From positions 4,659 to 68,658 of the forward strand of contig JAUYKH010000041.1 in the NCBI GenBank assembly GCA_030700065.1: a stretch of 64,000 nt of DNA, in the 5' to 3' direction. The stretch comes from a bacterium. Lineage in GTDB: Bacteria; Patescibacteriota; Doudnabacteria; UBA920; 2-01-FULL-46-14. Below, one piece after another: positions 2,312 to 50,837 of the stretch. The notes under the pieces were generated by a model. That model made no database searches and was not told the DNA's origin. It worked only from the letters and a program-made list of their open reading frames with translations. The position numbers and the translations under genes are program-made. How positions within the stretch are numbered: position 1 is the first letter of the stretch; every line of letters begins with the position of its first letter.

Positions 2312-3049
2312 ATGGGCAATATTCAATTTTTCAATGAGTTAGCTCGCCGGAAGATTTTGTCCAATGCACGGATGGCCTCGCTGGATTTTGGCGTCTATGA
2401 TCGGACCTTTGCTGATATCGATCGAAAAATTGAATTTCTGCCGGGCGATGTGGTTTTGGATTTGGGCGGAGGGACAGGGCAGATTTCGGGTTTGATCGCC
2501 GGAAAGGCAGGTCGCGTCGTTCTCGCGGACGGGGCCGGGGAAGCACTTCGGGCCGCGCGCGAAATTTTAGCCGATTTGCCGAACCTGTCTTTCGTACACT
2601 TGAATATAGAGCAAAGTCCGTTGGTTTTTGCAAACTCTGCTTTCGATAAGATTATATGTTATAGCGTCGTACATTATTTAAAGGATCAAAGCAGTTTCGC
2701 GGCGCTCATCTCCGAAATGCTAAGGATCGTTAAATCTGAAGGCAAGATTTTTATCGGTGATATTCCGCTTTCCGATAAAGGAAAGCGCTATCTTGACGAA
2801 CGAAAGAAGCATTTTTTTCAAAACTTGTTGGGGAACTTGAAATATTATTTTAGGAAATTTTTGACCGCGTTTTTTTACCGCCTGAAAGGAATTCGCGACA
2901 CACAAGTTTCGGGCGTGGTTTATTCGAAGGACGGTATGGAAGAAGTGCTTAGCCGTATCGGGGGTATAAACTATCGCTTCCTCGAACAGGATGCCTCGCT
3001 TCCCTTCGCCAATTCACGTGAAGATTTGTTGATTATCAAAAAACAATGA
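2312..3049 (+). CDS. Class I SAM-dependent methyltransferase
   Basis: 245 aa with motif I VLDLGGGTGQISGLIA and downstream acidic/hydrophobic methyltransferase motifs. Confidence 0.6.
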   Translation: MGNIQFFNELARRKILSNARMASLDFGVYDRTFADIDRKIEFLPGDVVLDLGGGTGQISGLIAGKAGRVVLADGAGEALRAAREILADLPNLSFVHLNIEQSPLVFANSAFDKIICYSVVHYLKDQSSFAALISEMLRIVKSEGKIFIGDIPLSDKGKRYLDERKKHFFQNLLGNLKYYFRKFLTAFFYRLKGIRDTQVSGVVYSKDGMEEVLSRIGGINYRFLEQDASLPFANSREDLLIIKKQ

Positions 3050-4044
3050 TTTATGAGGTGGAACAACCTAATTTTTTGGATCTTTTGGGCTTTGCGAGGC
3101 CGCGACCCAACAACCCCGATCTCCTAAAGGGGATTACTCTTGTCGGGTCAGGGAAAGGCGCCTTGGCTTTGGTCTTGAGGCACTTGAAAGAACGAGGGGT
3201 TATCAGAAACAAATTGGACGAGATACTTGTTCCAGATTGGCTGGGGTATTGGGTGTATAACCAAATTCAACCCTACGCTTTTCCGGCCAAGCGTTTGTCA
3301 GATCGCACGCGGGCGATATTGGTGTATCATCAATACGGTTTTCCGCAGGACATGGACAAAATAATGGCAACAGCTAGAGAAAAAAATTTGGTCGTCATTG
3401 AAGATTGCGCGCATGCGGTTTTTTCCCATTACCGGGGAAGGCGTTTGGGCTTCATTGGCGATTATTCGATATTTAGCTTTTCCAAGTGGGCGTTTTGTTA
3501 CGCCCTCGGCGGAGTACGGGGAAATGATGAATTTGAGGAATTTGCCAAAGAGGCAATAGGGAATACCGCCTTCGGATTGACAATGTTCAAGGATAGCGCG
3601 AAATGGTTTTATGAAAAAAGCAGACACTCCAAATATGCGAATTATTTGATTCAGATGTCTTATGCCCTCTATGGGCAGGCCCTCAAACCGGGGGCAGCCG
3701 CAGTCCGCCTTTTGAAGGCCAAACTGGAAGCGGAGATTAATTTGCGGCAAAAACGCTACCAGGAGTTCCGTCGAGCAACCGATTCGTCAGGTCTGTGCGA
3801 CCGTTTGGAAAAGGATGGGGTAACGCCTTATGTCATCCCGATACGAGTAAGGTTGGATCGGCAGGAATCCGTCGTCAGCGCGTTGGCCGTAGCCGGCATA
3901 GAATCCGGGATTTATCAATTTGACGCAAACCGCAATTTATTGGCGCCAAATTATATCTCGACCGTTTGGATTCCCTGCCACGGTGGAATATCGGAAAATG
4001 CATTTGCACAAATCATTGAAATTGTAAAAAAAAACAATGAATGA
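3046..4044 (+). CDS. Divergent DegT-like aminotransferase-fold protein (paralog B)
   Basis: 332 aa. ILVPDWL..RTRAILVYHQYGFPQDMDKIM..VIEDCAHAV..FSFSKWAF is collinear with paralog A. Confidence 0.5.
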   Translation: MIYEVEQPNFLDLLGFARPRPNNPDLLKGITLVGSGKGALALVLRHLKERGVIRNKLDEILVPDWLGYWVYNQIQPYAFPAKRLSDRTRAILVYHQYGFPQDMDKIMATAREKNLVVIEDCAHAVFSHYRGRRLGFIGDYSIFSFSKWAFCYALGGVRGNDEFEEFAKEAIGNTAFGLTMFKDSAKWFYEKSRHSKYANYLIQMSYALYGQALKPGAAAVRLLKAKLEAEINLRQKRYQEFRRATDSSGLCDRLEKDGVTPYVIPIRVRLDRQESVVSALAVAGIESGIYQFDANRNLLAPNYISTVWIPCHGGISENAFAQIIEIVKKNNE

Positions 4045-5080
4045 TTTTCGGACAATTTCAATCGAAACTAGCCCGCAGGAGTTCACTGATGTATGGGTGA
4101 AGTTCCAGGCTACGCACGAAACAAGTCCTTACTATCTGCCCACGACCTTGGAATATTTTCGCGCCTACTCCGGGAAGCGTCTTGCGGCAGAACGAAGTTT
4201 TGTCGTGGTTAGGGGGGATGAACCGGTGGCATTAGCCTTCGTTCCGATTGAAGAGGTGAAGGGGAAAAGGAGCATCAGCATCGGACAATATTTTACCCTT
4301 GCTCCTCTCTGGGAGCCTCTAAAAAATCTTTTGGGTTTTGTTATGGCTGAAATTGACCGTATCGCGACAGAAACTAAAGCCGCGAAAGCAATGTTTCGCA
4401 TCGACCTTTTGCAGCACAAACAATATCCCTATAATTTTTTATTGAACTACGATTATTTAAACACCTCACTTTTGGGATATTTGGTTGACTGTGGGAGTCC
4501 GTCCTGGCGGCGCAACCACGAGCGCGCGATTCGAAAAATTTCTTCTAATCCCGATTATTCAGTTTATATTATGGATCAAACCAATAAAGACTATGTTGTT
4601 CACGAACATTACCGCCAATTGCATCACAAAGCCGCAGGCAAGGTAACTCGGAGCAAGGAAAGTTTTGATTTGCAGTATCGGATGCTTGAAGAAGGAAATG
4701 CGATTTTGGTTGGCCTTAAACACAAAGATCGATTTATTGCGTTTACTTACTTTATGTTTTATAAAAACGGCGCTATCTCTTTTTCTGCCGCAGATGATCC
4801 CGAATATAACGAGTTGCCATTGTATCACATTATCAATGCCGAAGGATTAAAGTATTTGCAAAAGCATGGGGTTTTAGAAATGGACATGGGTCAGCCGCTT
4901 AATATCTCAAACCAGCCCTTTAATTTTCCCGATCAAAAACAGAAAAATATCACGCTTTTCAAAACCGGCTTCGAGGGGCGGTTTATGAATGAATTTCGCG
5001 CAATTAAGTATTTCACCAAAGAAACGTTTTTAGAGGACCAGCAAAATTTTTCCAAAAGGTATCAAGAGGCATTGTCATGA
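4037..5080 (+). CDS. FemAB/BioF2-like GNAT-fold acyltransferase (putative)
   Basis: 347 aa, about twice GNAT length. The C-terminal half (ILVGLKHKDRFIAFTYFMFYKNGAISFSAADDPEY) resembles the Acetyltransf_6/FemAB family. Call made by pattern only. Confidence 0.4.
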   Translation: MNDFRTISIETSPQEFTDVWVKFQATHETSPYYLPTTLEYFRAYSGKRLAAERSFVVVRGDEPVALAFVPIEEVKGKRSISIGQYFTLAPLWEPLKNLLGFVMAEIDRIATETKAAKAMFRIDLLQHKQYPYNFLLNYDYLNTSLLGYLVDCGSPSWRRNHERAIRKISSNPDYSVYIMDQTNKDYVVHEHYRQLHHKAAGKVTRSKESFDLQYRMLEEGNAILVGLKHKDRFIAFTYFMFYKNGAISFSAADDPEYNELPLYHIINAEGLKYLQKHGVLEMDMGQPLNISNQPFNFPDQKQKNITLFKTGFEGRFMNEFRAIKYFTKETFLEDQQNFSKRYQEALS

Positions 5081-11124: not shown

Positions 11125-12177
11125 ATGGAAATGACAATCGGCAATAAAAAGATCGGGCATGATTTTCCTACGTTTGTCGTCGCGGAAATGTCGGGTAATC
11201 ACAACCAAGATATTAACAGGGCGTATCAAATTATTGACGCGGCCGCCGAAGCCGGAGCAGATGCCATTAAGCTCCAAACTTATACTGCTGACACAATCAC
11301 GATTGATTCTGATGAGGCGCCTTTTCGTCTCGGTGCCGATGTTAATGAAGCGTGGGCCGGACAGACATTATATAAATTGTATCAACAGGCTTTCACTCCT
11401 TGGGGGTGGCAACCTAAACTTAAAGAATATGCAGAAAAGAAAGGCCTGATTTGTTTCTCAACGCCCTTTGACGAAACATCGGTAGACTTTCTGGAAAACC
11501 TGAATGTCCCGGCATACAAAGTTGCATCTTTTGAGTTGGTTGATATTCCACTTTTGAAAAAGATCGGGCAGACAAAAAAACCGGTGATTATATCCCGGGG
11601 CATGGCTTCACTCGAAGAAATTGAACTAGCGGTGGAAACTCTCAAAAAGGCCGGAACGTCTGGGGTAGCGGTTTTGCACTGTGTGAGTGCTTATCCAGCG
11701 CGGCCAGATCAGATGAACCTCGCAACAATTCCTGATTTGGCAAAAAGATTTGATGTGATTCCTGGCCTCTCCGACCACACTTTAGGTATTACCGTCCCAA
11801 TTGCGGCAGTGACTTTAGGGGCGAAAATAATAGAAAAGCACTTTACCTTGGCTCGCGCTGATGGGGGGCCGGATGCCTCATTTTCTTTGGAACCTAAAGA
11901 ATTGAAGGAGTTGGTGGATGCCATCAGGGACATAGAAAAGGCCGTGGGTAAACCGACTTATGGGGCTTCGGGCGGTGAATCAGAATACTTAAAGTATAGG
12001 CGTTCATTGTTTGCGGTAGCAGATATCAAGAAAGGCGAAGCGTTTACCAAAGATAACATTCGTTCGATTCGGCCCGGTTTCGGTCTGCCGCCAAAATATT
12101 TTGAACAAATAATTGGGAAAAAAGCGAAACAAGACATCAAACGAGGAACACCTTTGGGTTGGGAGATGATCAAGTGA
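11125..12177 (+). CDS. N-acetylneuraminate/pseudaminate/legionaminate-type synthase (NeuB family) #1
   Basis: FVVAEMSGNHNQDINRAYQIIDAAAEAGADAIKLQTY..LHCVSAYPA..GLSDHTLG plus a C-terminal SAF/antifreeze-like tail. This is the hallmark NeuB TIM-barrel pattern. Confidence 0.8.
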   Translation: MEMTIGNKKIGHDFPTFVVAEMSGNHNQDINRAYQIIDAAAEAGADAIKLQTYTADTITIDSDEAPFRLGADVNEAWAGQTLYKLYQQAFTPWGWQPKLKEYAEKKGLICFSTPFDETSVDFLENLNVPAYKVASFELVDIPLLKKIGQTKKPVIISRGMASLEEIELAVETLKKAGTSGVAVLHCVSAYPARPDQMNLATIPDLAKRFDVIPGLSDHTLGITVPIAAVTLGAKIIEKHFTLARADGGPDASFSLEPKELKELVDAIRDIEKAVGKPTYGASGGESEYLKYRRSLFAVADIKKGEAFTKDNIRSIRPGFGLPPKYFEQIIGKKAKQDIKRGTPLGWEMIK

Positions 12178-13370: not shown

Positions 13371-15800
13371 ATGCCTGCAAACAATAAAAAAAGAAAAGCG
13401 ATTATTTTAGGAGCCGGCCCTTTAGGTTTGGTGACCGCGTGGAAACTCCTGGAAAACGGCTGGAAGGTTGAGATTTACGAGAAGCAGAATATGGTTGGCG
13501 GCTTGTGCCGCACGTGGAGGTGGCGGGATTTCCTGGTTGATACCGGCCCGCATATATACCACACTCCAGACCCCCAGCTGGCGAAATTTTGGGAAGCGGA
13601 GTTTGGTGATCTTATGCTGAAGGGAGAATTTTGGTGTAAGAACGTGCGCGGTGATCAATTCGAAGAATATTGGGATTACCCTCTGTCCTGGGAAAGCATA
13701 TCGCGGTATCCGCTTAAGCTTAAGGAAAAAGTCTTGAAAGAATTGCAGGAACGCTCCGAGGAGTCCAAAGTCAAAGCAAGAAATTATACGCAATATATGG
13801 AGGCTCAAGTTGGTCCGACACTGCGTGAAATGTTTTTCAAATCGTATCCCGAAAAAATTTGGGGTATCACAACCGATGAAATGACGCCTGGCTGGGCGCC
13901 AAAACGCATTGAATTTCGGCAGAAAGTAACCCCTTTTTATCACAATCAATGGAACGCGGTCGGCAAATTCGGAACGGGATGCGTCTATGAACGAATTAAG
14001 GAAAAAATTGATTCGTTGGGCGGGAAGGTTTATTTAGGCGCGCAGGTGACCAACATAGTTCCAGAGGGCGGTGGGCGGCTGAAACGGATAACCTTCGCCG
14101 ATCGAGAGGCTGTCGAGATTGGACCGGATGACGTTGTCATCTCCAGTCTGCCAATTACCCTAACCGCCAGATTTTTTGGACATGAAAGCTCGCTGCGCTT
14201 CCGCGGCATTACTTCCGTGTATCTGGCCTACAAAAAAGAGTCGATCCTCCCAAAAGGGATTCATTGGCTCTATTATGGCTCCCCGAATGTTGATTTTAAC
14301 CGCATTACCGAACCCAAAAAACTCTCTCCTTACGTCGCGCCTACGGGCGAGACTTATCTCACTGTGGAAATTACCATGAGCCCCGGGGATGAAATCGACC
14401 GCATGGATCCGCAGGAGTTGTCAGGGCGCGTGGCCGCTCAAGTGGAAAAAGCCGGTCTGGCCCGAAAAGAGGAAGTGATTGACTCGAGCGTGAATAAGGA
14501 AAGGTTTGTCTATCCCTTGCAGTACGCGGGATATCAGGAAGAACTGGCAAAAACACGCGCTGTTGTTTCCAAATATCAGCAGCTGTTTTCCATCGGCACT
14601 GGCGGGGATTTTAGTTACGCTGATAGTCAAATTCTTTTTCATAAGGCATTTGATACGGTCTCCATTCTATGCGGAAAAGATTCGTCTTATACCCAGGTGA
14701 TTCGCCAGACTCCGCAAATTAGTTTCAACCAGATAGTTCGAATGGGTGAACGTAAAGTTGGTGATGGCGAGCAGCCCTATATCATCGCCGAAGCGGGACT
14801 CAATCACAACGGGAGCCTCGATCTGGCCAAACAGCTGGTTGACGCGGCCGCGAAAACCGGCGCGGATGCTGTAAAGTTTCAAACGTTTCAGGCGAAAAAT
14901 CGAATTTCCAGGAAAGTGAAGGCCGTCAAATATGCTGAAACAGTCATTGGCACGGAAGAGACGCTTTACGAGATGTTTGACCGATTGGCCATGTCGTTTG
15001 AGGACCAGAAACAACTGTTTGCTTACGCCAAGGATAGGGGAATCGAGGTTTTTTCGACCCCCTTTGACGAGGAAAGTGTGGATTTTCTCGAGTCGGTCGG
15101 CGTGAGGTTTTATAAAATTGCCTCAATGGATCTCGTCAATTTACCCTTGATTGAGCGCGCGGCAAAAACTGGCAAACCGATTATTCTTTCGACCGGGATG
15201 TCGACGCTTGGGCAAATAGAAGAGGCGGTCGAGGTCGTACAGAAAGCCGGTAACCCGAATTTGGTGCTTTTGCATTGCAATTCATCGTACCCGGCCGCGC
15301 CCGAGGAGATGAACCTCAATGTTATCAAGACCTTAAAGCAAGCGTTCGGGGTACCGGTGGGGCTTTCTGACCATACTTTGGGTTTAACAGTTTCCCAGAC
15401 TGCTTTAGCGATTGGAGCCAACATGATCGAGAGACATTTTACCCTGGATCGGACGTTTGAGGGACCAGACCACATTCTTTCGTCCGAGCCTCAAGAGTTT
15501 GCCGAGCTTGTGAGATTGTCCAAAAACACCCCCCCGATCAAATTGACAAAACAGATTTCCCAAATCCTTGGCGATGGAGTGAAGCGGATTCAGCCGAGCG
15601 AATACTCAACACTCAACACCCAGCGCAAGAGTCTGTATGCCGCGGCGGATATAGAGACTGGCGAGCCAATTACCAAAGAGAAGATTATTATTAAAGGCCC
15701 GGGCGGGGGACTGCTGCCAAAGTATTTGGATATGGTCGTGGGGCGCGTCGCCCGCAAACGCATCGAGAGCGATTATCCGATTACTTGGGAAGTTATTTAA
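13371..15800 (+). CDS. Fusion protein: N-terminal FAD/NAD(P)-binding amine-oxidase/UDP-galactopyranose-mutase-like oxidoreductase + C-terminal NeuB-family synthase #2
   Basis: 809-aa continuous ORF. N-term ILGAGPLGLVTAWKLLENGWKVEIYEKQNMVGGLCRT is a dinucleotide-binding fold. From about aa 440, YIIAEAGLNHNGSLDLAKQLVDAAAKTGADAVKFQTF..LHCNSSYPA..GLSDHTLG is a full NeuB domain. Confidence 0.7.
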   Translation: MPANNKKRKAIILGAGPLGLVTAWKLLENGWKVEIYEKQNMVGGLCRTWRWRDFLVDTGPHIYHTPDPQLAKFWEAEFGDLMLKGEFWCKNVRGDQFEEYWDYPLSWESISRYPLKLKEKVLKELQERSEESKVKARNYTQYMEAQVGPTLREMFFKSYPEKIWGITTDEMTPGWAPKRIEFRQKVTPFYHNQWNAVGKFGTGCVYERIKEKIDSLGGKVYLGAQVTNIVPEGGGRLKRITFADREAVEIGPDDVVISSLPITLTARFFGHESSLRFRGITSVYLAYKKESILPKGIHWLYYGSPNVDFNRITEPKKLSPYVAPTGETYLTVEITMSPGDEIDRMDPQELSGRVAAQVEKAGLARKEEVIDSSVNKERFVYPLQYAGYQEELAKTRAVVSKYQQLFSIGTGGDFSYADSQILFHKAFDTVSILCGKDSSYTQVIRQTPQISFNQIVRMGERKVGDGEQPYIIAEAGLNHNGSLDLAKQLVDAAAKTGADAVKFQTFQAKNRISRKVKAVKYAETVIGTEETLYEMFDRLAMSFEDQKQLFAYAKDRGIEVFSTPFDEESVDFLESVGVRFYKIASMDLVNLPLIERAAKTGKPIILSTGMSTLGQIEEAVEVVQKAGNPNLVLLHCNSSYPAAPEEMNLNVIKTLKQAFGVPVGLSDHTLGLTVSQTALAIGANMIERHFTLDRTFEGPDHILSSEPQEFAELVRLSKNTPPIKLTKQISQILGDGVKRIQPSEYSTLNTQRKSLYAAADIETGEPITKEKIIIKGPGGGLLPKYLDMVVGRVARKRIESDYPITWEVI

Positions 15801-23379: not shown

Positions 23380-26130
23380 ATGGATTTTTATAGCAAAAAA
23401 TCAATCAAAATAATAGTGACCCTTGGTCCCGCCACCAGAACCGAGGCTGATTTGCGTCAAATCAAGGCGCGCGGGGTTGATTTTGTCCGCATCAATATGT
23501 CTCATTCCACCCTGGAAGATTTAAAGTATTTTATCGGTCTCGCGAAAAAAGTTGATATCCCGTTTATCATTGATACTGAAGGGTCCCAGGTGCGAACCGG
23601 TGAGTTGGCAGAAAATTCGATTGAGCTTGCTGAAAACGGCGAAGTCAAAATTTTTGCATACCCGAAGATTGGCGGGCCGCGGGAAATTGCGCTCAAACCC
23701 GCGTACATTCTACCCCTGCTCGAAAAAGGTGACATCCTGCATGTGGATTTTGAGAGTGCGATTTTGCGTGTCACAGACACTTCGACTCTTCCTCGGGGGT
23801 TTGTCCGAGCAAGAGCCATCAGCGCCGGCAGGGTTGGACGAAATAAAGCCGTAGTAATTGATTCTGTCATGCCCAAACTTCTCAATCTGCCGCCATTATC
23901 CAGCAAGGATTACGAATCAATCAGAATTGGCCTTCAGGAGGGGATAGGGCATGTGGGCGCTTCGTTTATGCGTTCAGCTGATTTTGTTGAGGAGGTACGC
24001 AAAGCAAGCCGGGACAAAATGCAGATCATTTCCAAAATTGAGTGCGTGGACGCGCTTAACAATCTTGGGGAAATTATCCAAGCGTCCGATTATTTGCTTT
24101 TGGACCGCGGTGATTTGAGCAAAGAGGTCCCGATCGAGAAAATTCCATTTTTGCAAAAACATATTATCAACGAGGCGCGCACTTTGGGCAAAGGCGTGTT
24201 TGTCGCCACAAACTTTTTGGAATCAATGGTCGCAAACAAGCGGCCGACCCGCGCGGAGGTGAGTGATGTTATAAACACAATTTTGGACGGGGTGTATGGC
24301 GTGGTGCTTTCGTCCGAGACAGCCATTGGCCGCTATCCCATCCGGAGTATCAACATGATGAACAAACTCATCGCAGAGGGGGAAGGAATGGTAGGCCATC
24401 AGGTGAATGGATTGTCAGATATTGGCCAAAGCAACCTCATACTCCCGCACGGGGGAAAACTGATTGATCGAGTTTTGAGGGAAATTCCCGAGTTTGACTT
24501 TCGCAACATGCCAAAGATTCAAATTGATGACGAGACTTATATGGATCTGGAACAAATCGCTCAAGGAACCTTTAGCCCGCTGGAGGGATTTATGTCCAAA
24601 GAGGAAGTACAAAGCGTGCTCGACCACACGCGTCTGCCAAGCGGAACCATCTGGCCTCTTCCCATTGTTTTGAGCGTTCCCAGCGAGCGAGCGGATAGCA
24701 TTGAAGCCGGACAAACAGTGGTTTTGACGGATCAGACCAGTCAGCCAGTGGCGCTACTGCACGTGGATGATAAGTACCAGTTTGGTTTGAGCGAGTTTGC
24801 GAAAAAATTATATGAAACAGAAAATTTGGAGCATCCGGGAGTTAGAAGGGTGACAAATTATCATCCTTGGTTTCTCGGCGGAAAAATTGATCTCATCAGA
24901 AGGCGGCCTTCGGATCACAAGGAATACGAGCTGACCCCGCGGCAGGCCAGACGTCTCTTTGCCGAACGCGGATGGCGGAGGATTGTCGGATTTCACACCC
25001 GAAATGTCATTCATCGCAGTCACGAGTTCATTCAACTCGCTGCCATGGACCGTGCTTCGGCTGACGGGCTTTTTGTCCATCCCGTGGTCGGCAAAAAAAA
25101 ACCGGGAGATTTTCATGCCGGATACATTATTCGAGCTTACGAAACAATGATGGAAAAATTTTATCCCAAGGACAGCGTGGTTTTGGGAACCTTCGCCACT
25201 TATTCCCGTTACGCCGGACCGCGCGAAGCGCTCTTTACGGCCATTTGCCGGCAAAATTTCGGCTGCAGTCATTTTATTGTAGGTCGGGACCATACCGGCG
25301 TAGGAAATTTTTACCATCCAAAGGCCAGTCACGAAATTTTTGACAAGTTTCCGGAACTTGAAATTATTCCTATCAGATTTGATAAAGTCTTTTATTCAAA
25401 AAAATTGCAAGACCACGTCCACGAGCCAGATGACCTGGGTCACGCGGAAGATGATAAGCTGCATATAAGCGGAACTGATGCGCGAAAACTTTTTGAAAAA
25501 GGCGAAGCCCCGCCGGAGTGGTTCATGCGCCCCGAGATTTCGCAAATAATTTTGGATGCAATAAATCAGGGCGAAGAAGTATTTGTTAAGGACGATCGGC
25601 CGAGCGGGTGCGTATTATGGTTCACGGGGCTTTCCGGTTCGGGCAAGACTACTGTCGCGGACCATTTGAAAGAAAAATTAGAGGTTAGAGGTTACACAGC
25701 GAAAATTTTGGACGGCGATGCCGTCAGGGCGACTCTACACAAAAATTTGGGTTTTACTCGCGAGGATATCAGGAAAAACAATGAAACCATAACGCGTTTA
25801 GCGAAGCAGGAGAGTCAAAAGCACGATTTTGTCTTGGTTCCGGTTATTTCTCCTTACGCAGAGGATCGGCAGATGGCGCGTGAGATAATGGGAAAGAATT
25901 TTTTTCTAGTCTATGCCGACTGTCCGCTTGAGGAATGTATTAAGCGAGACACGAAGGGTCTGTATCGGCGCGCGAGAGCGGGCGAGATCGAAAATCTTAT
26001 TGGTTTTTCAGAAACTAACCCTTATGAAGCGCCACAGGATTCTGATGTGACAATCAGCGCGCACCTGGAAAACCCCGAGCAAAGCTTAAAGAAGGTTTGG
26101 CAGTTTCTTAAAAGCAGGAGATTTGTATGA
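23380..26130 (+). CDS. Tri-domain fusion: pyruvate-kinase-like catalytic domain + ATP sulfurylase (sulfate adenylyltransferase) + APS kinase
   Basis: aa 1-330 carry PK barrel/A-domain signatures (IVTLGPATRT, RINMSHS, IIDTEGSQVRTG, ISKIE, LLLDRGDLSKEV, ATNFLESMVANKRPTRAEVSDV, VVLSSETAIG). The middle domain has IVGFHTRNVIHRSHE and HPVVGKKKPGDF of ATP sulfurylase. The C-terminal domain has WFTGLSGSGKTTVA of APS kinase. It is one 916-aa ORF. Confidence 0.75.
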   Translation: MDFYSKKSIKIIVTLGPATRTEADLRQIKARGVDFVRINMSHSTLEDLKYFIGLAKKVDIPFIIDTEGSQVRTGELAENSIELAENGEVKIFAYPKIGGPREIALKPAYILPLLEKGDILHVDFESAILRVTDTSTLPRGFVRARAISAGRVGRNKAVVIDSVMPKLLNLPPLSSKDYESIRIGLQEGIGHVGASFMRSADFVEEVRKASRDKMQIISKIECVDALNNLGEIIQASDYLLLDRGDLSKEVPIEKIPFLQKHIINEARTLGKGVFVATNFLESMVANKRPTRAEVSDVINTILDGVYGVVLSSETAIGRYPIRSINMMNKLIAEGEGMVGHQVNGLSDIGQSNLILPHGGKLIDRVLREIPEFDFRNMPKIQIDDETYMDLEQIAQGTFSPLEGFMSKEEVQSVLDHTRLPSGTIWPLPIVLSVPSERADSIEAGQTVVLTDQTSQPVALLHVDDKYQFGLSEFAKKLYETENLEHPGVRRVTNYHPWFLGGKIDLIRRRPSDHKEYELTPRQARRLFAERGWRRIVGFHTRNVIHRSHEFIQLAAMDRASADGLFVHPVVGKKKPGDFHAGYIIRAYETMMEKFYPKDSVVLGTFATYSRYAGPREALFTAICRQNFGCSHFIVGRDHTGVGNFYHPKASHEIFDKFPELEIIPIRFDKVFYSKKLQDHVHEPDDLGHAEDDKLHISGTDARKLFEKGEAPPEWFMRPEISQIILDAINQGEEVFVKDDRPSGCVLWFTGLSGSGKTTVADHLKEKLEVRGYTAKILDGDAVRATLHKNLGFTREDIRKNNETITRLAKQESQKHDFVLVPVISPYAEDRQMAREIMGKNFFLVYADCPLEECIKRDTKGLYRRARAGEIENLIGFSETNPYEAPQDSDVTISAHLENPEQSLKKVWQFLKSRRFV

Positions 26131-26948
26131 TAAAATTTTGGGACGAAACCAATTTGGCGATTGAGGCGGCCAGGGCGGCTGGCAAGAAAATTTTGCAGGT
26201 GTATCAAACTGATTTCAAGACAGAACGAAAGGCTGACTATGAACCGATAACTTTGGCGGACCGGACAAGTCAAAAGACAATTCTTGAAGTTTTGGGTTCC
26301 TCTCATCTGCCGGTCCTTTCCGAAGAGCAGGAGGACGATTTATTACGTTTGAAGCAGGAACGCGTGTGGATTGTGGATCCTCTGGATGGGACAGCTGATT
26401 TCGTGGCTCGGACTGATGAATTTTGCGTAATGATTGCATTGGTAGAGAGTCAGATTTCCATACTCGGAGTAATTTATGAGCCGACTAATGATACTTTGTT
26501 TGTGGCCCAAAAGGGGGAAGGGGCGTATATCTGCAAGAATGGTCATTGGGAAAGACTGCGGGTGAGCAATGTACAGGGTCTTGACCAAATTCGGGCGGTC
26601 ATGAGCAGAAATCATTTGTTGGAAGAAGAAAAGGACATTCTGGCAAAAATAGGAGTTAAAAACTTTGTCCAAATGGGCAGTGCGGGACTGAAGGCCGCGG
26701 GGATTGCGGAAGGACGGTTTGATTTGTATTTCACGATGACAAACAAAATAAAACAATGGGATACAGCCGCGGCAAATTGTCTAATAAACGAGGCGGGCGG
26801 AAAAATAACAGATCTCGCGGGCAAAGACCTTATCTATAATATGGAAGATGTTTATCACAGAGATGGTATTTTGATGAGCAATGGAAAGATTCACGGGGAA
26901 GTGCTCAAGATTTATAGGGGTTTCAAAAATAAGCAATCAAATAATTAA
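26127..26948 (+). CDS. Inositol-monophosphatase-family protein (CysQ-like 3'(2'),5'-bisphosphate nucleotidase, putative)
   Basis: WIVDPLDGTADF motif of the IMPase/CysQ family. CysQ role is inferred from adjacency to the PAPS synthase. Confidence 0.55.
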   Translation: MIKFWDETNLAIEAARAAGKKILQVYQTDFKTERKADYEPITLADRTSQKTILEVLGSSHLPVLSEEQEDDLLRLKQERVWIVDPLDGTADFVARTDEFCVMIALVESQISILGVIYEPTNDTLFVAQKGEGAYICKNGHWERLRVSNVQGLDQIRAVMSRNHLLEEEKDILAKIGVKNFVQMGSAGLKAAGIAEGRFDLYFTMTNKIKQWDTAAANCLINEAGGKITDLAGKDLIYNMEDVYHRDGILMSNGKIHGEVLKIYRGFKNKQSNN

Positions 26949-46645: not shown

Positions 46646-47995
46646 ATGAAACAAAAAAATCAAACCGGCCAAGCCTTAATCATTTCCGTATTGTTTTTGG
46701 TAGTCGTGCTGGTATTGGTCAGCAGTTTGCTGGATTTCGTGGGGTTGAACGTTCGCGGCACAAGAGGCGCGGTGGCAAGAGAGCAGGCGCTGCAGCTCGC
46801 CGAGGCCGGGATTGACAAGGCCGTCTGGCAGCTCAACCAGACAGCCGGGAGCTATATTGGGGAAACCGGCACGGCCCTGTCAACCGGAGTATTTGATGTC
46901 AATGTCGCGACCATCTCCGCTGTTTTGAGGGAGATCACCGCGACTGGCTACGTTCCGGATAAAATCAATACGATCGCAACCAAACAAATCAAGGTTCGGG
47001 CCACAATCGAAACCACGGGGGCAAGTTTTTTCTACGGGATTCAGGTAGGCGAGGGTGGCTTGGTGATGGGCAACAACACTTTTGTTGATGGAAACGTGTA
47101 CAGCAACGGCATCATTGACGGCGATAGCGGCGCGATTATCACGGGCGACGCTTTTTCTGCCGGCCCTTTGGGGCGCATTTTTGACCGATTACAAGTAAGC
47201 GGTCATGCCCATGCCAACCGGATTGATACAAATGTGACCATAGGAGGCAACGCTTATGGGCAAACCATGAACCAGGTTACTGTTGCCGGGAATGTCTATA
47301 CCAACTCGATGAGCAATTGCAGCGTCGATGGGGACGCTTTTTACACCACGCGTGTCTCCTGCACTGTTGGAGGGACTTCGAACACGCCATATTTGGGAGC
47401 GGCGGATCCGCCGATGGAGACCATGCCTCTCTCTGATGAGCAGATCGCGGAGTGGAAATCGCAGGCCGAGGCGGGCGGGACGATTATTGGGGATCTGAAT
47501 GTGCTGAATGGTTCTCAACAAAATTTGGGGCCCAAGAAAATTACTGGAAATATGCTTGTCGATAATAATGCGCGGTTGACAATCACCGGGAAAATCTGGG
47601 TTCAGGGCAATATCATATTTTCCAATAACGCGATTATTGAGCTTCATCCATCCTACGGCGACTTGAGCGAGGCCATTATTGCCGATGGTTTGGCAGACGT
47701 GGTAAATAACGTGGTGTTCCAGAGGGCCGGGCCGGCGAGTTATATCTTGATGGTCACAACTTCAGCCGATCTGAACGCTTTCGATATCAACAACAATGCC
47801 GACACGCTTATTGCGTACGCCGCGAATGGCGGAATTAATATCGCCAATAACGCCAACTTGCGCGAAGTGACGGGTTGGCGAGTGAATTTGGCGAATAATG
47901 CGTCAATCACTTACGAAACCGGACTGGCCAGCCTTTTATTCTCGTCCGGGCCAGGCGCGTCATGGACTATTCTGCGCGGGACATGGCGCGAATGA
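46646..47995 (+). CDS. PilX-N-like minor pilin / pilus-associated protein with Gly/Asn-rich beta-helix-like C-terminal region
   Basis: MKQKNQTGQALIISVLFLVVVLVLV is a PilX_N-type N-terminus. It is followed by degenerate G-N/D-x-repeat stretches (GNNTFVDGNVYSNGIIDGDSGAIITGDAF..). Confidence 0.45.
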   Translation: MKQKNQTGQALIISVLFLVVVLVLVSSLLDFVGLNVRGTRGAVAREQALQLAEAGIDKAVWQLNQTAGSYIGETGTALSTGVFDVNVATISAVLREITATGYVPDKINTIATKQIKVRATIETTGASFFYGIQVGEGGLVMGNNTFVDGNVYSNGIIDGDSGAIITGDAFSAGPLGRIFDRLQVSGHAHANRIDTNVTIGGNAYGQTMNQVTVAGNVYTNSMSNCSVDGDAFYTTRVSCTVGGTSNTPYLGAADPPMETMPLSDEQIAEWKSQAEAGGTIIGDLNVLNGSQQNLGPKKITGNMLVDNNARLTITGKIWVQGNIIFSNNAIIELHPSYGDLSEAIIADGLADVVNNVVFQRAGPASYILMVTTSADLNAFDINNNADTLIAYAANGGINIANNANLREVTGWRVNLANNASITYETGLASLLFSSGPGASWTILRGTWRE

Positions 47996-50495
47996 ATTTT
48001 TTGAACTGGTTGCCGCGGTCAGCGTAGTCTCTGAACATCCCGAAACTCGCCGAGGCCGGGGAGAGCAGACAAATTTTGCCCCGCGGGGTCACTTTGAACG
48101 CAATCGCGACCGCCTTTTTCATGGATGAGACGGCATATTTTTTTGTTTTCAACTTCGTTTTCTTGTCCAAAGCATTCCATATCTTATCGCCAGTGGCAGG
48201 AAATAGAACAAGTGACCGAAGCTGCGATGTTTTAATACGAGATGCAAGCTTCGCAAAAGACAGCCCTCGGTCAAATCCGCCGGCAATAAGTGTTGATACA
48301 TCATCACCCAAAACGTCCAGCGCGCGAATTGTCGCCACAGGGACAGTGGCCAGCGAATCATTGTAAAATTTAATTCCTCGAAATCTGCCGACGTATTCGA
48401 GCCGGTGCGGAAGGGTTTTAAATTTCCTGATAGCCTCCAAAGACAGCCGCGGGGCGATTTTGAAAAGTTTCGCTACCGCCATCGCGGCGGCCACGGCTTC
48501 GGGCGGAATGAGTTTGGGAAGATATTGAGCTTTGGACTCAATGACCCGAACTTTTTTGCTGCGGCTTTTCGAAGCAATTTGCGCCGGAATTTTATTTTTG
48601 GGATTAAAAACAACCGCATCGTCGCTGTTTTGGTGTTGGATAATCCTGCTTTTCGCCCAGGCGTATTTCGCAAAGCTCCCGTGATGGTCCAGATGTTCGG
48701 GAACAATATTCAGTATCACGGCCACGTGCGGGCTGTATCTGATATCCTCCAATTGCTGGCTTGAAAGTTCCATCACAAACAGGGTTTGATCGGTCGCACC
48801 CTCTAGATAATCAAGCGCGGGTTTGCCAATATTGCCGACCAATCTAACGTCTCGATATTTTTGCTTCAAGATCGAGTAGATGAGCGAGGACGTCGTGCTT
48901 TTGCCTTTGGTTCCGGTGATGCCGATAATTTTCCCAGGCGCGTTTGCGAAAAATAGATTCGTGGCCGTGGTCACGTCTTTGCCGCGCAGTTGCGGCAAGC
49001 CAGGCTTGATTCCAGGCGAGCGGATAATCATATCGTAGTTCGCAATGGAATCAAGGTAATTCTTGTTTATTTTTTTATCAGCAATGCCCATTGTGAGGTG
49101 CGGATAGTGTTTTTTCAAATACTTGAGGGTGCTTTGTCCCTCGCGGCCAAAACCCAGGATTAAAATCGAGGGACGCGCAACGGCTCGAAGTCTGCGTTCA
49201 TATTCCGCCGGCAGGAAATGATTTTTATTCCAGGAGCCCAGAACTTTATTATTTATATCCTTGTGTTTAACGAGTTCAAGTGCGAGCCTTATCTCTTCTC
49301 TCGTTGCCACGCACTCGAACGGCTTAATACCAGTTCCTGTCATTTGACGAATATATTTTTTTATTTGAGCGTTTCGGAGGAGATCACTGCCAAAGATTTC
49401 TATCATCTTTGATTTCGGCAAAAACGGCGCCAAAAGAAGATAAGATGACGCGCATTTGGCGCAGTGACCGCACCAGGTATTGGTTTTTTGTCCGACATTG
49501 CAACTGCGAAACGCGAGGCGATGCCTTGTAAAGTGCGAAAAAAGCTGGCTGATTTGTATTTCATAAAGCGGCCGCAAGAAACTGAAGTAATATATATTAA
49601 AATATTTATTTAAATAAGTATTAGAATATTCGCGAAACAGCTTTTCAAACGCAAAAGATTTGGAATACTGATGATTGATTTTTTTGCCTTTGTAAACGAC
49701 GTTTTCCTCATCGGCGCTTCGTTCATTGGAAGCAATAACGTTTTTGTAGCCGTGAATCGCGGCGGCCAGAGCTCCCAAGAAAGCCAGGTACGCGGAAAAA
49801 GGCGTATGGCCGTTGAGGTAGCCGGACTTATTGAGTTTGAGCAACTTGGAATCAATTGTCCTTTTAACATTGATAATGTTTTTATACCCGGCAATGCGAG
49901 CGTTTTCAATGGCGGGCTTCACGTTCCCCAAGACCATCACAGCTTGGCGTTTGTTGAGACCTTTTAGAATTTCTAATGTTACAGCCGAATCTTTTCCTCC
50001 GCCGGCCAAGATAAGATCGCCTTCGGCGATCTTAGAATGTAGAATATGGAATGTAGAATGTTGGGAAGAAACAATGCGGACGAAATCGGGTGTAGTGAAG
50101 TCTATTTTATTCTGATAGAAAAATTCACCCAGGCCGTTTAATAGGAGGTTTTTCCACCAGGTGATCTGCGCGTTGTTTAATTTTCCAGCCTTGATAACAA
50201 TCTCCCTCGGACACGCCGCTTTCCAGTAACTGATTAGTTCAATTAACCCAAGATTAAATACCAAGTTTCTAATTGAACTTGTCATCCCCGACCCGGTCGG
50301 GGATCCACTTGTCGGTATTACAATTTCCGGCCGAAAAACAATATCCGGTTCAAGCACAAACCGGAATTTAATATGTAGGTTGCGACCCAGTTGGCGGATA
50401 TCGAAAGATTCGTAAACCAACCGCGGATGTTTCTTGCGAAGCTCGGAGAGCGTCATAATAATTATGATTTTACCATAAAAATTGTTATTCCGCAC
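47967..50495 (-). CDS. murD: Fusion ORF: N-terminal PP-loop (SGGKDS-type) ATP-pyrophosphatase-like domain + C-terminal UDP-N-acetylmuramoylalanine--D-glutamate ligase MurD
   Basis: 842-aa continuous ORF with a GTG start. N-terminal LAGGGKDSAV PP-loop plus CGHCAKC cysteines. The C-terminal half carries ILGFGREGQS, GITGTKGKSTT and the MurD-type ending ASFGMFRDYADRGNQF. No plausible internal start separates the two halves. Confidence 0.65.
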   Translation of the reverse strand: MRNNNFYGKIIIIMTLSELRKKHPRLVYESFDIRQLGRNLHIKFRFVLEPDIVFRPEIVIPTSGSPTGSGMTSSIRNLVFNLGLIELISYWKAACPREIVIKAGKLNNAQITWWKNLLLNGLGEFFYQNKIDFTTPDFVRIVSSQHSTFHILHSKIAEGDLILAGGGKDSAVTLEILKGLNKRQAVMVLGNVKPAIENARIAGYKNIINVKRTIDSKLLKLNKSGYLNGHTPFSAYLAFLGALAAAIHGYKNVIASNERSADEENVVYKGKKINHQYSKSFAFEKLFREYSNTYLNKYFNIYYFSFLRPLYEIQISQLFSHFTRHRLAFRSCNVGQKTNTWCGHCAKCASSYLLLAPFLPKSKMIEIFGSDLLRNAQIKKYIRQMTGTGIKPFECVATREEIRLALELVKHKDINNKVLGSWNKNHFLPAEYERRLRAVARPSILILGFGREGQSTLKYLKKHYPHLTMGIADKKINKNYLDSIANYDMIIRSPGIKPGLPQLRGKDVTTATNLFFANAPGKIIGITGTKGKSTTSSLIYSILKQKYRDVRLVGNIGKPALDYLEGATDQTLFVMELSSQQLEDIRYSPHVAVILNIVPEHLDHHGSFAKYAWAKSRIIQHQNSDDAVVFNPKNKIPAQIASKSRSKKVRVIESKAQYLPKLIPPEAVAAAMAVAKLFKIAPRLSLEAIRKFKTLPHRLEYVGRFRGIKFYNDSLATVPVATIRALDVLGDDVSTLIAGGFDRGLSFAKLASRIKTSQLRSLVLFPATGDKIWNALDKKTKLKTKKYAVSSMKKAVAIAFKVTPRGKICLLSPASASFGMFRDYADRGNQFKKFIRAMSRAE

Positions 50496-50547
50496 TTGGG
50501 CGAATGATTTGTTTTTGTTATAATGCCTAAAGGGATTGGTGCTTTTG

Positions 50548-50619
50548 GCCCTCGTGGTGAAATGGATATCACAACAGGCTTCGGACCTGTGGGTGGGGGT
50601 TCGATTCCCTCCGAGGGCA
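50548..50619 (+). tRNA. tRNA-Arg (anticodon TCG)
   Basis: Manual cloverleaf: acceptor GCCCTCG/CGAGGGC, D-stem GTGA/TCAC, anticodon stem ACAGG/CCTGT with loop CTTCGGA, T-loop TTCGATT, discriminator A. No CCA encoded. Confidence 0.7.
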
Positions 50620-50627
50620 TTGATAAT

Positions 50628-50837
50628 ATGTTAGAGGAAAAAGACAAAATTTACGGGGCGGAGGACTTGGCGAAGTTTTTCGGCGTTACCCAAAAAACCA
50701 TTTGGGAATGGTGCAAAAAAGGCAAATTGCCCGCGTTTAAGATCGGCAAGGAATGGAAGGTCAGGGTGAGCGATCTGAATAAGACGATCACCGGGAAAAT
50801 AAGTGCGCATAAAGAAAAAGGGACCCCGTTGTTTTAA
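50628..50837 (+). CDS. Excisionase-family helix-turn-helix DNA-binding protein
   Basis: LAKFFGVTQKTIWEWCKKGKLPAFKIGKEWKV is the excisionase/MerR-like HTH pattern. The gene starts immediately after tRNA-Arg. Confidence 0.45.
   Translation: MLEEKDKIYGAEDLAKFFGVTQKTIWEWCKKGKLPAFKIGKEWKVRVSDLNKTITGKISAHKEKGTPLF

Follow-up and report, generated by a model that had tools for sequence, protein, structure and literature searches.

What is the function of a gene in which a PP-loop ATP pyrophosphatase-like domain is joined to a ligase of the MurD type, and is it one gene or two that were joined by error? The question is raised by a stretch of 64,000 nucleotides (positions 4,659 to 68,658 of contig JAUYKH010000041.1, assembly GCA_030700065.1; hereafter the window) from a Patescibacterium whose metagenome-assembled genome (MAG) is labelled Doudnabacteria, in which a single uninterrupted open reading frame (ORF) runs over positions 47967..50495 of the minus strand and encodes 842 aa, from a GTG start to a stop codon at 47967-47969. 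Probably, its product unites in one polypeptide both enzymes of the alternative MurD2/MurL route to the D-glutamate (D-Glu) of peptidoglycan. The pathway itself is known; the novelty lies in its single-chain form and in the range of hosts. In Xanthomonas oryzae, the route consists of MurD2 (XOO_1320) and MurL (XOO_1319), and Micromonospora and Salinispora have validated orthologues (Feng et al. 2017, via PMC8788868, PMC5808125). MurL converts the terminal L-Glu to D-Glu unidirectionally, with the use of one ATP and the release of AMP (PMC8788868, PMC5808125). The pathway was described in 2017; a 2021 review considered it to be limited to a few genera (rare actinomycetes and certain Gamma- and Alphaproteobacteria) and proposed it as a narrow-spectrum antibiotic target, and orthologues of low similarity from cyanobacteria, a fungus and an amoeba are mentioned in a review of 2018.

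The 842-aa ORF and all the strings quoted for it in an initial annotation made from the letters of the window are present as described, including LAGGGKDS (ORF residues 163-170), WCGHCAKC (341-348) and ASFGMFRDYADRGNQF at the C-terminus, and only the start had to be corrected. The probable coding sequence is 47967..50456 (minus strand), which encodes 829 aa from ATG 50456 (MTLSELRKKH..., ORF residue 14), the start found both in homologues and in GenBank gene calls; the corresponding GenBank protein, MDP3994174.1 (P0121, on a 74-kb contig), is 100% identical over ORF residues 14-842. The murD score of the C-terminal half and the MurL E value of the N-terminal half, both given below, place the ORF far beyond chance.

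Classification of residues 1-420 by hidden Markov models (HMMs) and by structure identified the N-terminal half as a homologue of MurL with a QueC-like PP-loop fold. The MurL module (49179..50456, minus strand) matches the NCBIfam MurL model NF041275 with an E value of 4.3e-72, residues 41-410 being aligned to profile positions 25-394 (370/447), and the Pfam families MurL_N (PF26299) and MurL_epimerase_C (PF26298) are precomputed on the identical protein and on all of its relatives in the public protein collection. All 46 of the 46 invariant columns of the MurL family are kept in the window protein, including GGKDS and four cysteines. A weak match of the N-terminal half to DUF6395 (E 0.045), from a Pfam set without the MurL families, was treated as noise. 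An AlphaFold (AF2) model of this half, based on a 70-sequence alignment, is of high confidence (predicted local distance difference test, pLDDT, 94.9; predicted template modelling score, pTM, 0.94), and in structure comparisons, Foldseek among them, QueC and NAD synthetase were the nearest solved folds. The Rossmann-like alpha/beta core, in which an SGGxDS loop follows strand 1, is that of the PP-loop superfamily and of its QueC-like branch, although the window protein has no match to the QueC family proper in Pfam or NCBIfam. The assignment of this half to the PP-loop enzymes in the initial annotation was thus correct, given the conserved GGKDS, the QueC-like fold and the confident model.

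The PP-loop LAGGGKDS (49986..50009, minus strand) is predicted to bind the alpha-phosphate and pyrophosphate of ATP for adenylation. Among 70 MurL homologues, G167 and D169 never vary and at least 97% keep K168 and S170, and the MurL profile aligns onto the SGGKDS loop of TtuA, whose PP-loop was the sole match among PDB sequences (E 0.005). Together, the PP-loop fold and GGKDS offer a structural explanation for the release of AMP by MurL (carboxylate adenylation, as in QueC), and they lend indirect support to the ATP/Mg-dependent, AMP-forming, unidirectional L-to-D epimerisation that is predicted for the module. The CGHCAKC cluster noticed in the initial annotation is part of a Cys332-x9-Cys342-x2-Cys345-x2-Cys348 arrangement (49452..49502, minus strand), a predicted structural site of the QueC type whose metal, as in the QueC structure, is presumably zinc. 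All four cysteines are invariant in 70/70 MurL homologues, as are Cys95, Cys395, His230 and His275, and Cys95, Cys395 or the invariant histidines may be the acid/base catalysts. The N-terminal subdomain of the module (50022..50456, minus strand; approximately ORF residues 14-158, with an approximate boundary) is made up of a beta-sheet with helices and matched no solved fold.

The C-terminal half is a MurD-type ligase module (47970..49178, minus strand), in which ORF residues 444-836 align to the murD model TIGR01087 with 294.9 bits (cutoff 212) and for which MurD structures are the best PDB matches. It was aligned to Escherichia coli MurD, with the crystal numbering verified on K115, N138, H183, K198, S415 and F422. 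The catalytic residues are intact (equivalents of E. coli K115, N138, H183, K198 and S415), including the ATP-binding P-loop GTKGKST (48894..48914, minus strand; ORF residues 528-534) with the equivalent of Lys115, and Lys615 (48651..48653, minus strand), the conserved equivalent of the carbamylated catalytic Lys198. At the E. coli positions D182, K348, A414 and L416, X. oryzae MurD2 has Glu197, Arg358, Pro433 and Phe435, and an E197D/R358K double mutant of MurD2 showed a complete switch to D-Glu, while in E. coli MurD the K319T substitution led to a gain of L-Glu acceptance (PMC8788868). The window ligase, on the same strand, has Glu600 (48696..48698) at Asp182/Glu197 and Arg743 (48267..48269) at Lys348/Arg358, the two determinants of stereospecificity, as well as Leu715 (48351..48353) at E. 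coli Lys319 and Phe818 (48042..48044) at Leu416/Phe435. In the solved D-Glu MurDs that were compared, position 182 is Asp (E. coli, T. maritima, P. aeruginosa and 7sir) or Thr (S. agalactiae), and 'DSK' stands at 319 in every one. The description of this half as a canonical MurD was therefore misleading. Although the half passes the murD HMM, Glu and Arg take the places of the Asp (or Thr) and Lys of D-Glu MurDs, and instead of Asp/Thr182, Lys319 and the lack of a MurL partner this half shows Glu600, Leu715 and fusion to MurL. These signature residues point to an L-Glu-specific ligase of the MurD2 type.

Genetic linkage in relatives leads in the same direction. In the two closest genomes in GTDB, murL and a murD-type gene are separate and in the same order, with overlaps of 31 bp (L002) and of ATGA (L003), so that the partnership of MurL with a MurD-type ligase takes the form of a fusion here and of adjacent or overlapping genes in relatives. 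Ten stand-alone ligases that are near relatives of the window ligase were compared by their gene neighbours: murL lies immediately upstream in 7/7 of the Glu/Arg type (six recognised by HMM, and the seventh, at a contig edge, by the tail motif SWNxxxFLPxxY only) versus within approximately 5 kb in 0/3 of the Lys348 type (Fisher's exact probability 1/120). Homology to MurL, the MurD2 residues and the upstream murL of split relatives all support one of the two functions suggested in the initial annotation, a MurL-type epimerase working with a MurD2-like ligase. One of the Lys348-type relatives (L012, 3560-5824; Asp182/Lys348, no murL nearby) divergently adjoins an Aminotran_4 gene; this family includes D-amino-acid aminotransferase, and the neighbour may represent a classical D-Glu supply in a neighbouring lineage.

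The fusion had implicitly been taken to be rare. It is indeed undescribed in the searchable literature (which omits most subscription journals), where no mention of a MurL-MurD2 fusion or of MurL in Patescibacteria was found and where searches for murI in Patescibacteria and for MurL in the candidate phyla radiation or cyanobacteria gave nothing relevant, but it is common in sequence databases. An exhaustive phmmer search was made of 1.84 billion cluster representatives, and the best 150 matches were classified: 98 are fused (91 in the order MurL-to-ligase and 7 ligase-to-MurL), and the others consist of MurL only (33) or of the ligase only (19). In a collection of 5.8 billion sequences, 120/120 of the best matches are four-domain fusions, from Daviesbacteria, Microgenomates, other Patescibacteria and Bacteroidota. 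To judge from these searches, the MurL-MurD2 fusion is common in Patescibacteria and Bacteroidota, and the fused proteins are annotated everywhere as D-glutamate ligase. The existence of both domain orders implies more than one fusion event. A rough neighbour-joining tree of 357 MurL domains has at least 26 changes between the fused and unfused states, a figure that is indicative only, given a crude tree and biased sampling, and the window protein and its orthologue form a small fused clade within a mostly unfused group.

Fusions of MurL to other enzymes were also found, such as a MurE-MurL protein (P0222, 932 aa; TIGR01085 463 bits vs a cutoff of 257), in which the partner would consume the product of MurL, and a MurB-MurL protein (P0250, 791 aa; NF000755 348 bits vs a cutoff of 277). 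A 1247-aa protein from Bacteroidales MAGs (P0166, e.g., MBR3528486.1; a 24-member cluster) combines MurL and a MurD-type ligase (MurD2) with an M20-family amidohydrolase/carboxypeptidase-like domain. Fusions to MurE, MurB and MurD2 place the MurL domain in the cytoplasmic UDP-MurNAc-peptide pathway, and, judged by these domain architectures, MurL partners several cytoplasmic Mur enzymes and not MurD2 alone.

The initial annotation also raised the question of whether the window gene is one gene or two genes separated by a frameshift or stop. At the junction ...RAVARPS/ILILGFGREG (49137..49187, minus strand), the last MurL helix passes directly into beta-strand 1 of the ligase. Since the closest relatives have separate overlapping genes, a 1-nt indel in a murL/murD overlap could have fused them in the assembly, and an out-of-frame ATG at ~49201, which opens a 13-codon ORF MNADFEPLRVPRF* just before the ligase (~49160-49201, minus strand, frame +1 relative to the ORF), is a possible former murD start; from its sequence it could be a relic of such an ancestral start (the MurD of L003 begins MNLQDL...) or due to chance. 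Such an artefact is nevertheless extremely improbable. The junction, which was inspected in all three frames, has no in-frame ATG or stop and no homopolymer run, and if the fusion were undone by one added base, MurL would run on into the ligase for ~35 codons, which is seen in no relative. A copy of 829 aa with 2 substitutions and the identical junction (MDZ4243599.1) occurs in an independent MAG that bears the label Candidatus Doudnabacteria, and an 830-aa orthologue, 70% identical and from a different metagenome, has the same junction and both halves intact at a syntenic locus (L007), where it is flanked by HTH_17 and holA and, at its opposite end, by PilX-like, PilC, PilB, Bac_transf and Wzy_C. 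Junctions are uniformly tight across the fused homologues, hundreds of which are known, with the last MurL helix, 2-4 residues and ligase strand 1 in succession; the closest match of the N-terminal half (P0001) is C-terminally truncated and uninformative on this point. There is no base-composition break between MurL and ligase, an internal promoter or start for a separate ligase was sought and consensus matches were at chance level only, and the full-length AF2 model (pLDDT 91.7) has no disordered linker. Continuity is hence supported by the independent copy, the syntenic orthologue and approximately 100 fused representatives, and on this comparative evidence the fusion is authentic and not an artefact.

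If the gene is one, its two modules might still act differently from the MurD2/MurL scheme. The ligase could be an ordinary D-Glu MurD, with the PP-loop module modifying the alpha-carboxylate of Glu in another manner, e.g., by ammonia-dependent amidation to iso-glutamine, which is the amidotransferase idea of the initial annotation and for which no specific support was obtained. That the PP-loop enzymes QueC and NAD synthetase form amides or nitriles and that the ligase passes the murD equivalog model would fit this idea, yet the module is homologous over its whole length to MurL, an epimerase that needs ATP/Mg only, the ligase holds the Glu/Arg pair that confers L-Glu specificity, and ligases with the canonical Lys348 have no murL neighbour. 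Moreover, no glutaminase domain is present in the protein or nearby, and the known formation of iso-glutamine is carried out by MurT/GatD on lipid II with a different fold. We regard amidation as unlikely. There is also a slim chance that one of the modules is catalytically dead, or has a structural or regulatory role, and that D-Glu comes from MurI or Dat elsewhere in the genome, considering that the 64-kb window covers only part of the genome and that small symbiont genomes accumulate degenerate domains; against this, all invariant residues of both families are kept, both modules fold with high confidence, and both halves are intact at 70% identity across lineages.

The combination of MurL and MurD2 activities thus remains the preferred reading, and several observations that weigh against it should be set beside the evidence above. 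The function of the fused and Patescibacterial members is a prediction, and the specificity residues were located through the E. coli numbering given in the review. The MurL module scores 243 bits on NF041275, short of the 700-bit equivalog cutoff of this Xanthomonadales-specific model; other fused or split members from Patescibacteria or Bacteroidota score 212-254 bits, and by this comparison the low score is a matter of distance and not of a missing domain. In the ligase, Ala rather than Pro occupies the position of E. coli A414 and MurD2 P433, and Arg348 and Phe416 are also found in some solved true D-Glu MurDs. MurD2 mutants P433A and F435L keep L-Glu specificity (PMC8788868), indicating that these two positions are not decisive. 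Among 91 MurL-fused ligase domains, Arg348 is present in 89, Lys319 in none and Glu182 in 66, while 24 keep Asp at position 182 and one has Gly. The Glu/Arg signature of MurD2, as seen in these alignments, is therefore good but not absolute, and the window ligase holds the full X. oryzae-like pair. Glu182 as a universal marker was dropped because of the 24/91 fused ligases with Asp, and Lys319 is not a clean discriminator, being absent from the fused ligases but also from three Lys348-type ligases. The full-length AF2 model has a pTM of 0.69 and shows no confident geometry between the modules, which leaves channelling a conjecture. As to glutamate racemase, no murI homologue was found in the 64-kb window, to which the search was confined (best tblastn E 0.29), and no match to Asp_Glu_race or Aminotran_4 was found among the 50 window ORFs scanned with Pfam.

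In the proposed mechanism, the MurD2-type C-terminal module would extend UDP-MurNAc-L-Ala by an L-Glu with conversion of ATP to ADP + Pi, and the MurL module, a QueC-like PP-loop ATP pyrophosphatase, would adenylate the alpha-carboxylate of the terminal L-Glu at the expense of a second ATP (to AMP + PPi). Adenylation would acidify the alpha-proton, and the activated residue would then be epimerised, so that neither free D-Glu nor, hence, glutamate racemase would be needed. The fusion may have originated when neighbouring murL and murD2 genes lost their stop/start overlap; it would fix a 1:1 stoichiometry and would probably favour hand-over of the L-Glu intermediate. A wider proposal, about which we are slightly more doubtful than confident, is that the fused enzyme is the sole source of D-Glu for the cell wall in this lineage (no MurI, no Dat), with direct hand-over of L-Glu from ligase to epimerase, and that MurD2/MurL is a major D-Glu route across Patescibacteria and parts of Bacteroidota and Cyanobacteria. 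If this is true, MurL would be a module that has repeatedly docked onto Mur enzymes (MurB, MurD2 and MurE), and the annotation as D-glutamate ligase would be mistaken in thousands of cases.

With regard to significance, the window gene and its thousands of homologues suggest a wide distribution of the pathway among uncultivated Patescibacteria, Bacteroidota and cyanobacteria, often as one bifunctional protein. Such a wide spread of MurD2/MurL would weaken the premise of a narrow-spectrum target, and the naming of the fused proteins as D-glutamate ligase would expose a systematic annotation error. For genome-reduced symbionts, the fusion would explain how D-Glu is produced without a racemase, and it offers a compact one-polypeptide system for studying the mechanism of MurL and possible substrate channelling. 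The fusions to MurD2, MurE and MurB are furthermore independent Rosetta-stone evidence for the place of MurL in the pathway.

Compared to the MurD2/MurL system of X. oryzae, the window protein has the same two protein families, the same predicted chemistry (an L-Glu ligase and then a unidirectional epimerase that converts ATP to AMP), the Glu/Arg pair in the ligase and, in split relatives, neighbouring genes, and differs in being one polypeptide, MurL then MurD2 without a linker, in a host far outside the taxa of the review, with a more distant MurL half and with Ala at P433; its activities are predicted ones. QueC and the QueC-like anti-phage proteins Cap9 and QatC share only 14-20% sequence identity with MurL, which is larger than QueC by an N-terminal domain of ~145 aa and a helical extension at the C-terminus, and whose outcome is epimerisation and hydrolysis rather than amide or nitrile formation. 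MurL falls outside the QueC family. Canonical MurD, supplied by MurI or a D-amino-acid aminotransferase, shares the ligase fold, P-loop, carbamyl-Lys and His183 with the window ligase, but it needs free D-Glu and has Asp (or Thr) 182 and 'DSK' 319. Fusions of consecutive cytoplasmic precursor enzymes in one chain are also known for MurE/MurF (NF008896), MurC/Ddl (NF011171) and MurF/Alr (NF008897); these have other partners, and none has MurL or alters the stereochemical logic of the pathway. The lipid II iso-glutaminyl synthase MurT/GatD likewise acts on the alpha-carboxylate of the stem-peptide Glu and has a Mur-ligase-like subunit, but it differs in its lipid II substrate, acyl-phosphate, glutaminase partner and absence of a PP-loop, and it matches the window protein at E ~1 only.

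The MurL-MurD2 gene stands alone, outside any dcw cluster, and no second Mur ligase or other peptidoglycan gene is present within the 64-kb window. It faces a type IV pilus operon in convergent orientation, while tRNA-Arg, an HTH_17 gene and holA are oriented divergently from it. Upstream of ATG 50456, no Shine-Dalgarno sequence is visible and the only element is a weak -10-like one; a weak sigma-70-like match, ATAACA-16-CATAAT (50461..50488, minus strand), ends 5 nt before the ATG and is a consensus match only, from a scan that found 6 sites vs 4.2 expected. The fusion gene may give a transcript without a leader or with only a very short one. At the other end, the 3′ ends of the MurL-MurD2 gene and a PilX_N-like gene (46646-47995) overlap by 29 bp (47967-47995), with a terminator-like hairpin at 47973-47990 within the overlap, and the same two genes are 33 bp apart in L007. 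Two GIY-YIG genes lie among the type IV pilus genes of L007 (14569-15201 and 16463-16759) and are absent from the window. On the divergent side, the listed ORF 50523-50837 (plus strand) overlaps tRNA-Arg(tcg) (50548-50619, plus strand), and the true start of the HTH_17 gene is most likely ATG 50628, which gives 69 aa and agrees with the syntenic L007.

The upstream 40 kb form a nonulosonic-acid/surface-glycan cluster. An unusual four-part fusion of 916 aa (23380-26130, plus strand) consists of a pyruvate-kinase barrel (residues 7-324), PUA_2, ATP-sulfurylase and adenosine 5′-phosphosulfate (APS) kinase, and together with a CysQ-like gene (26127-26948) it suggests synthesis of 3′-phosphoadenosine 5′-phosphosulfate (PAPS) for a sulfated surface glycan. 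The same cluster contains an 809-aa fusion of an FAD amine-oxidase domain to NeuB and SAF (13371-15800, plus strand), a second, ordinary NeuB gene (11125-12177, plus strand) and three CMP-sugar cytidylyltransferases, a set of genes which suggests that a bacterium with a small genome has more than one pathway to nonulosonic acids. Two ORFs on the plus strand (1295-2311 and 3046-4044), which adjoin a complete DegT gene (190-1311), show partial DegT/DnrJ/EryC1 aminotransferase matches (profile positions 111-196 and 109-306 of 360) and may be divergent or degenerate paralogues.

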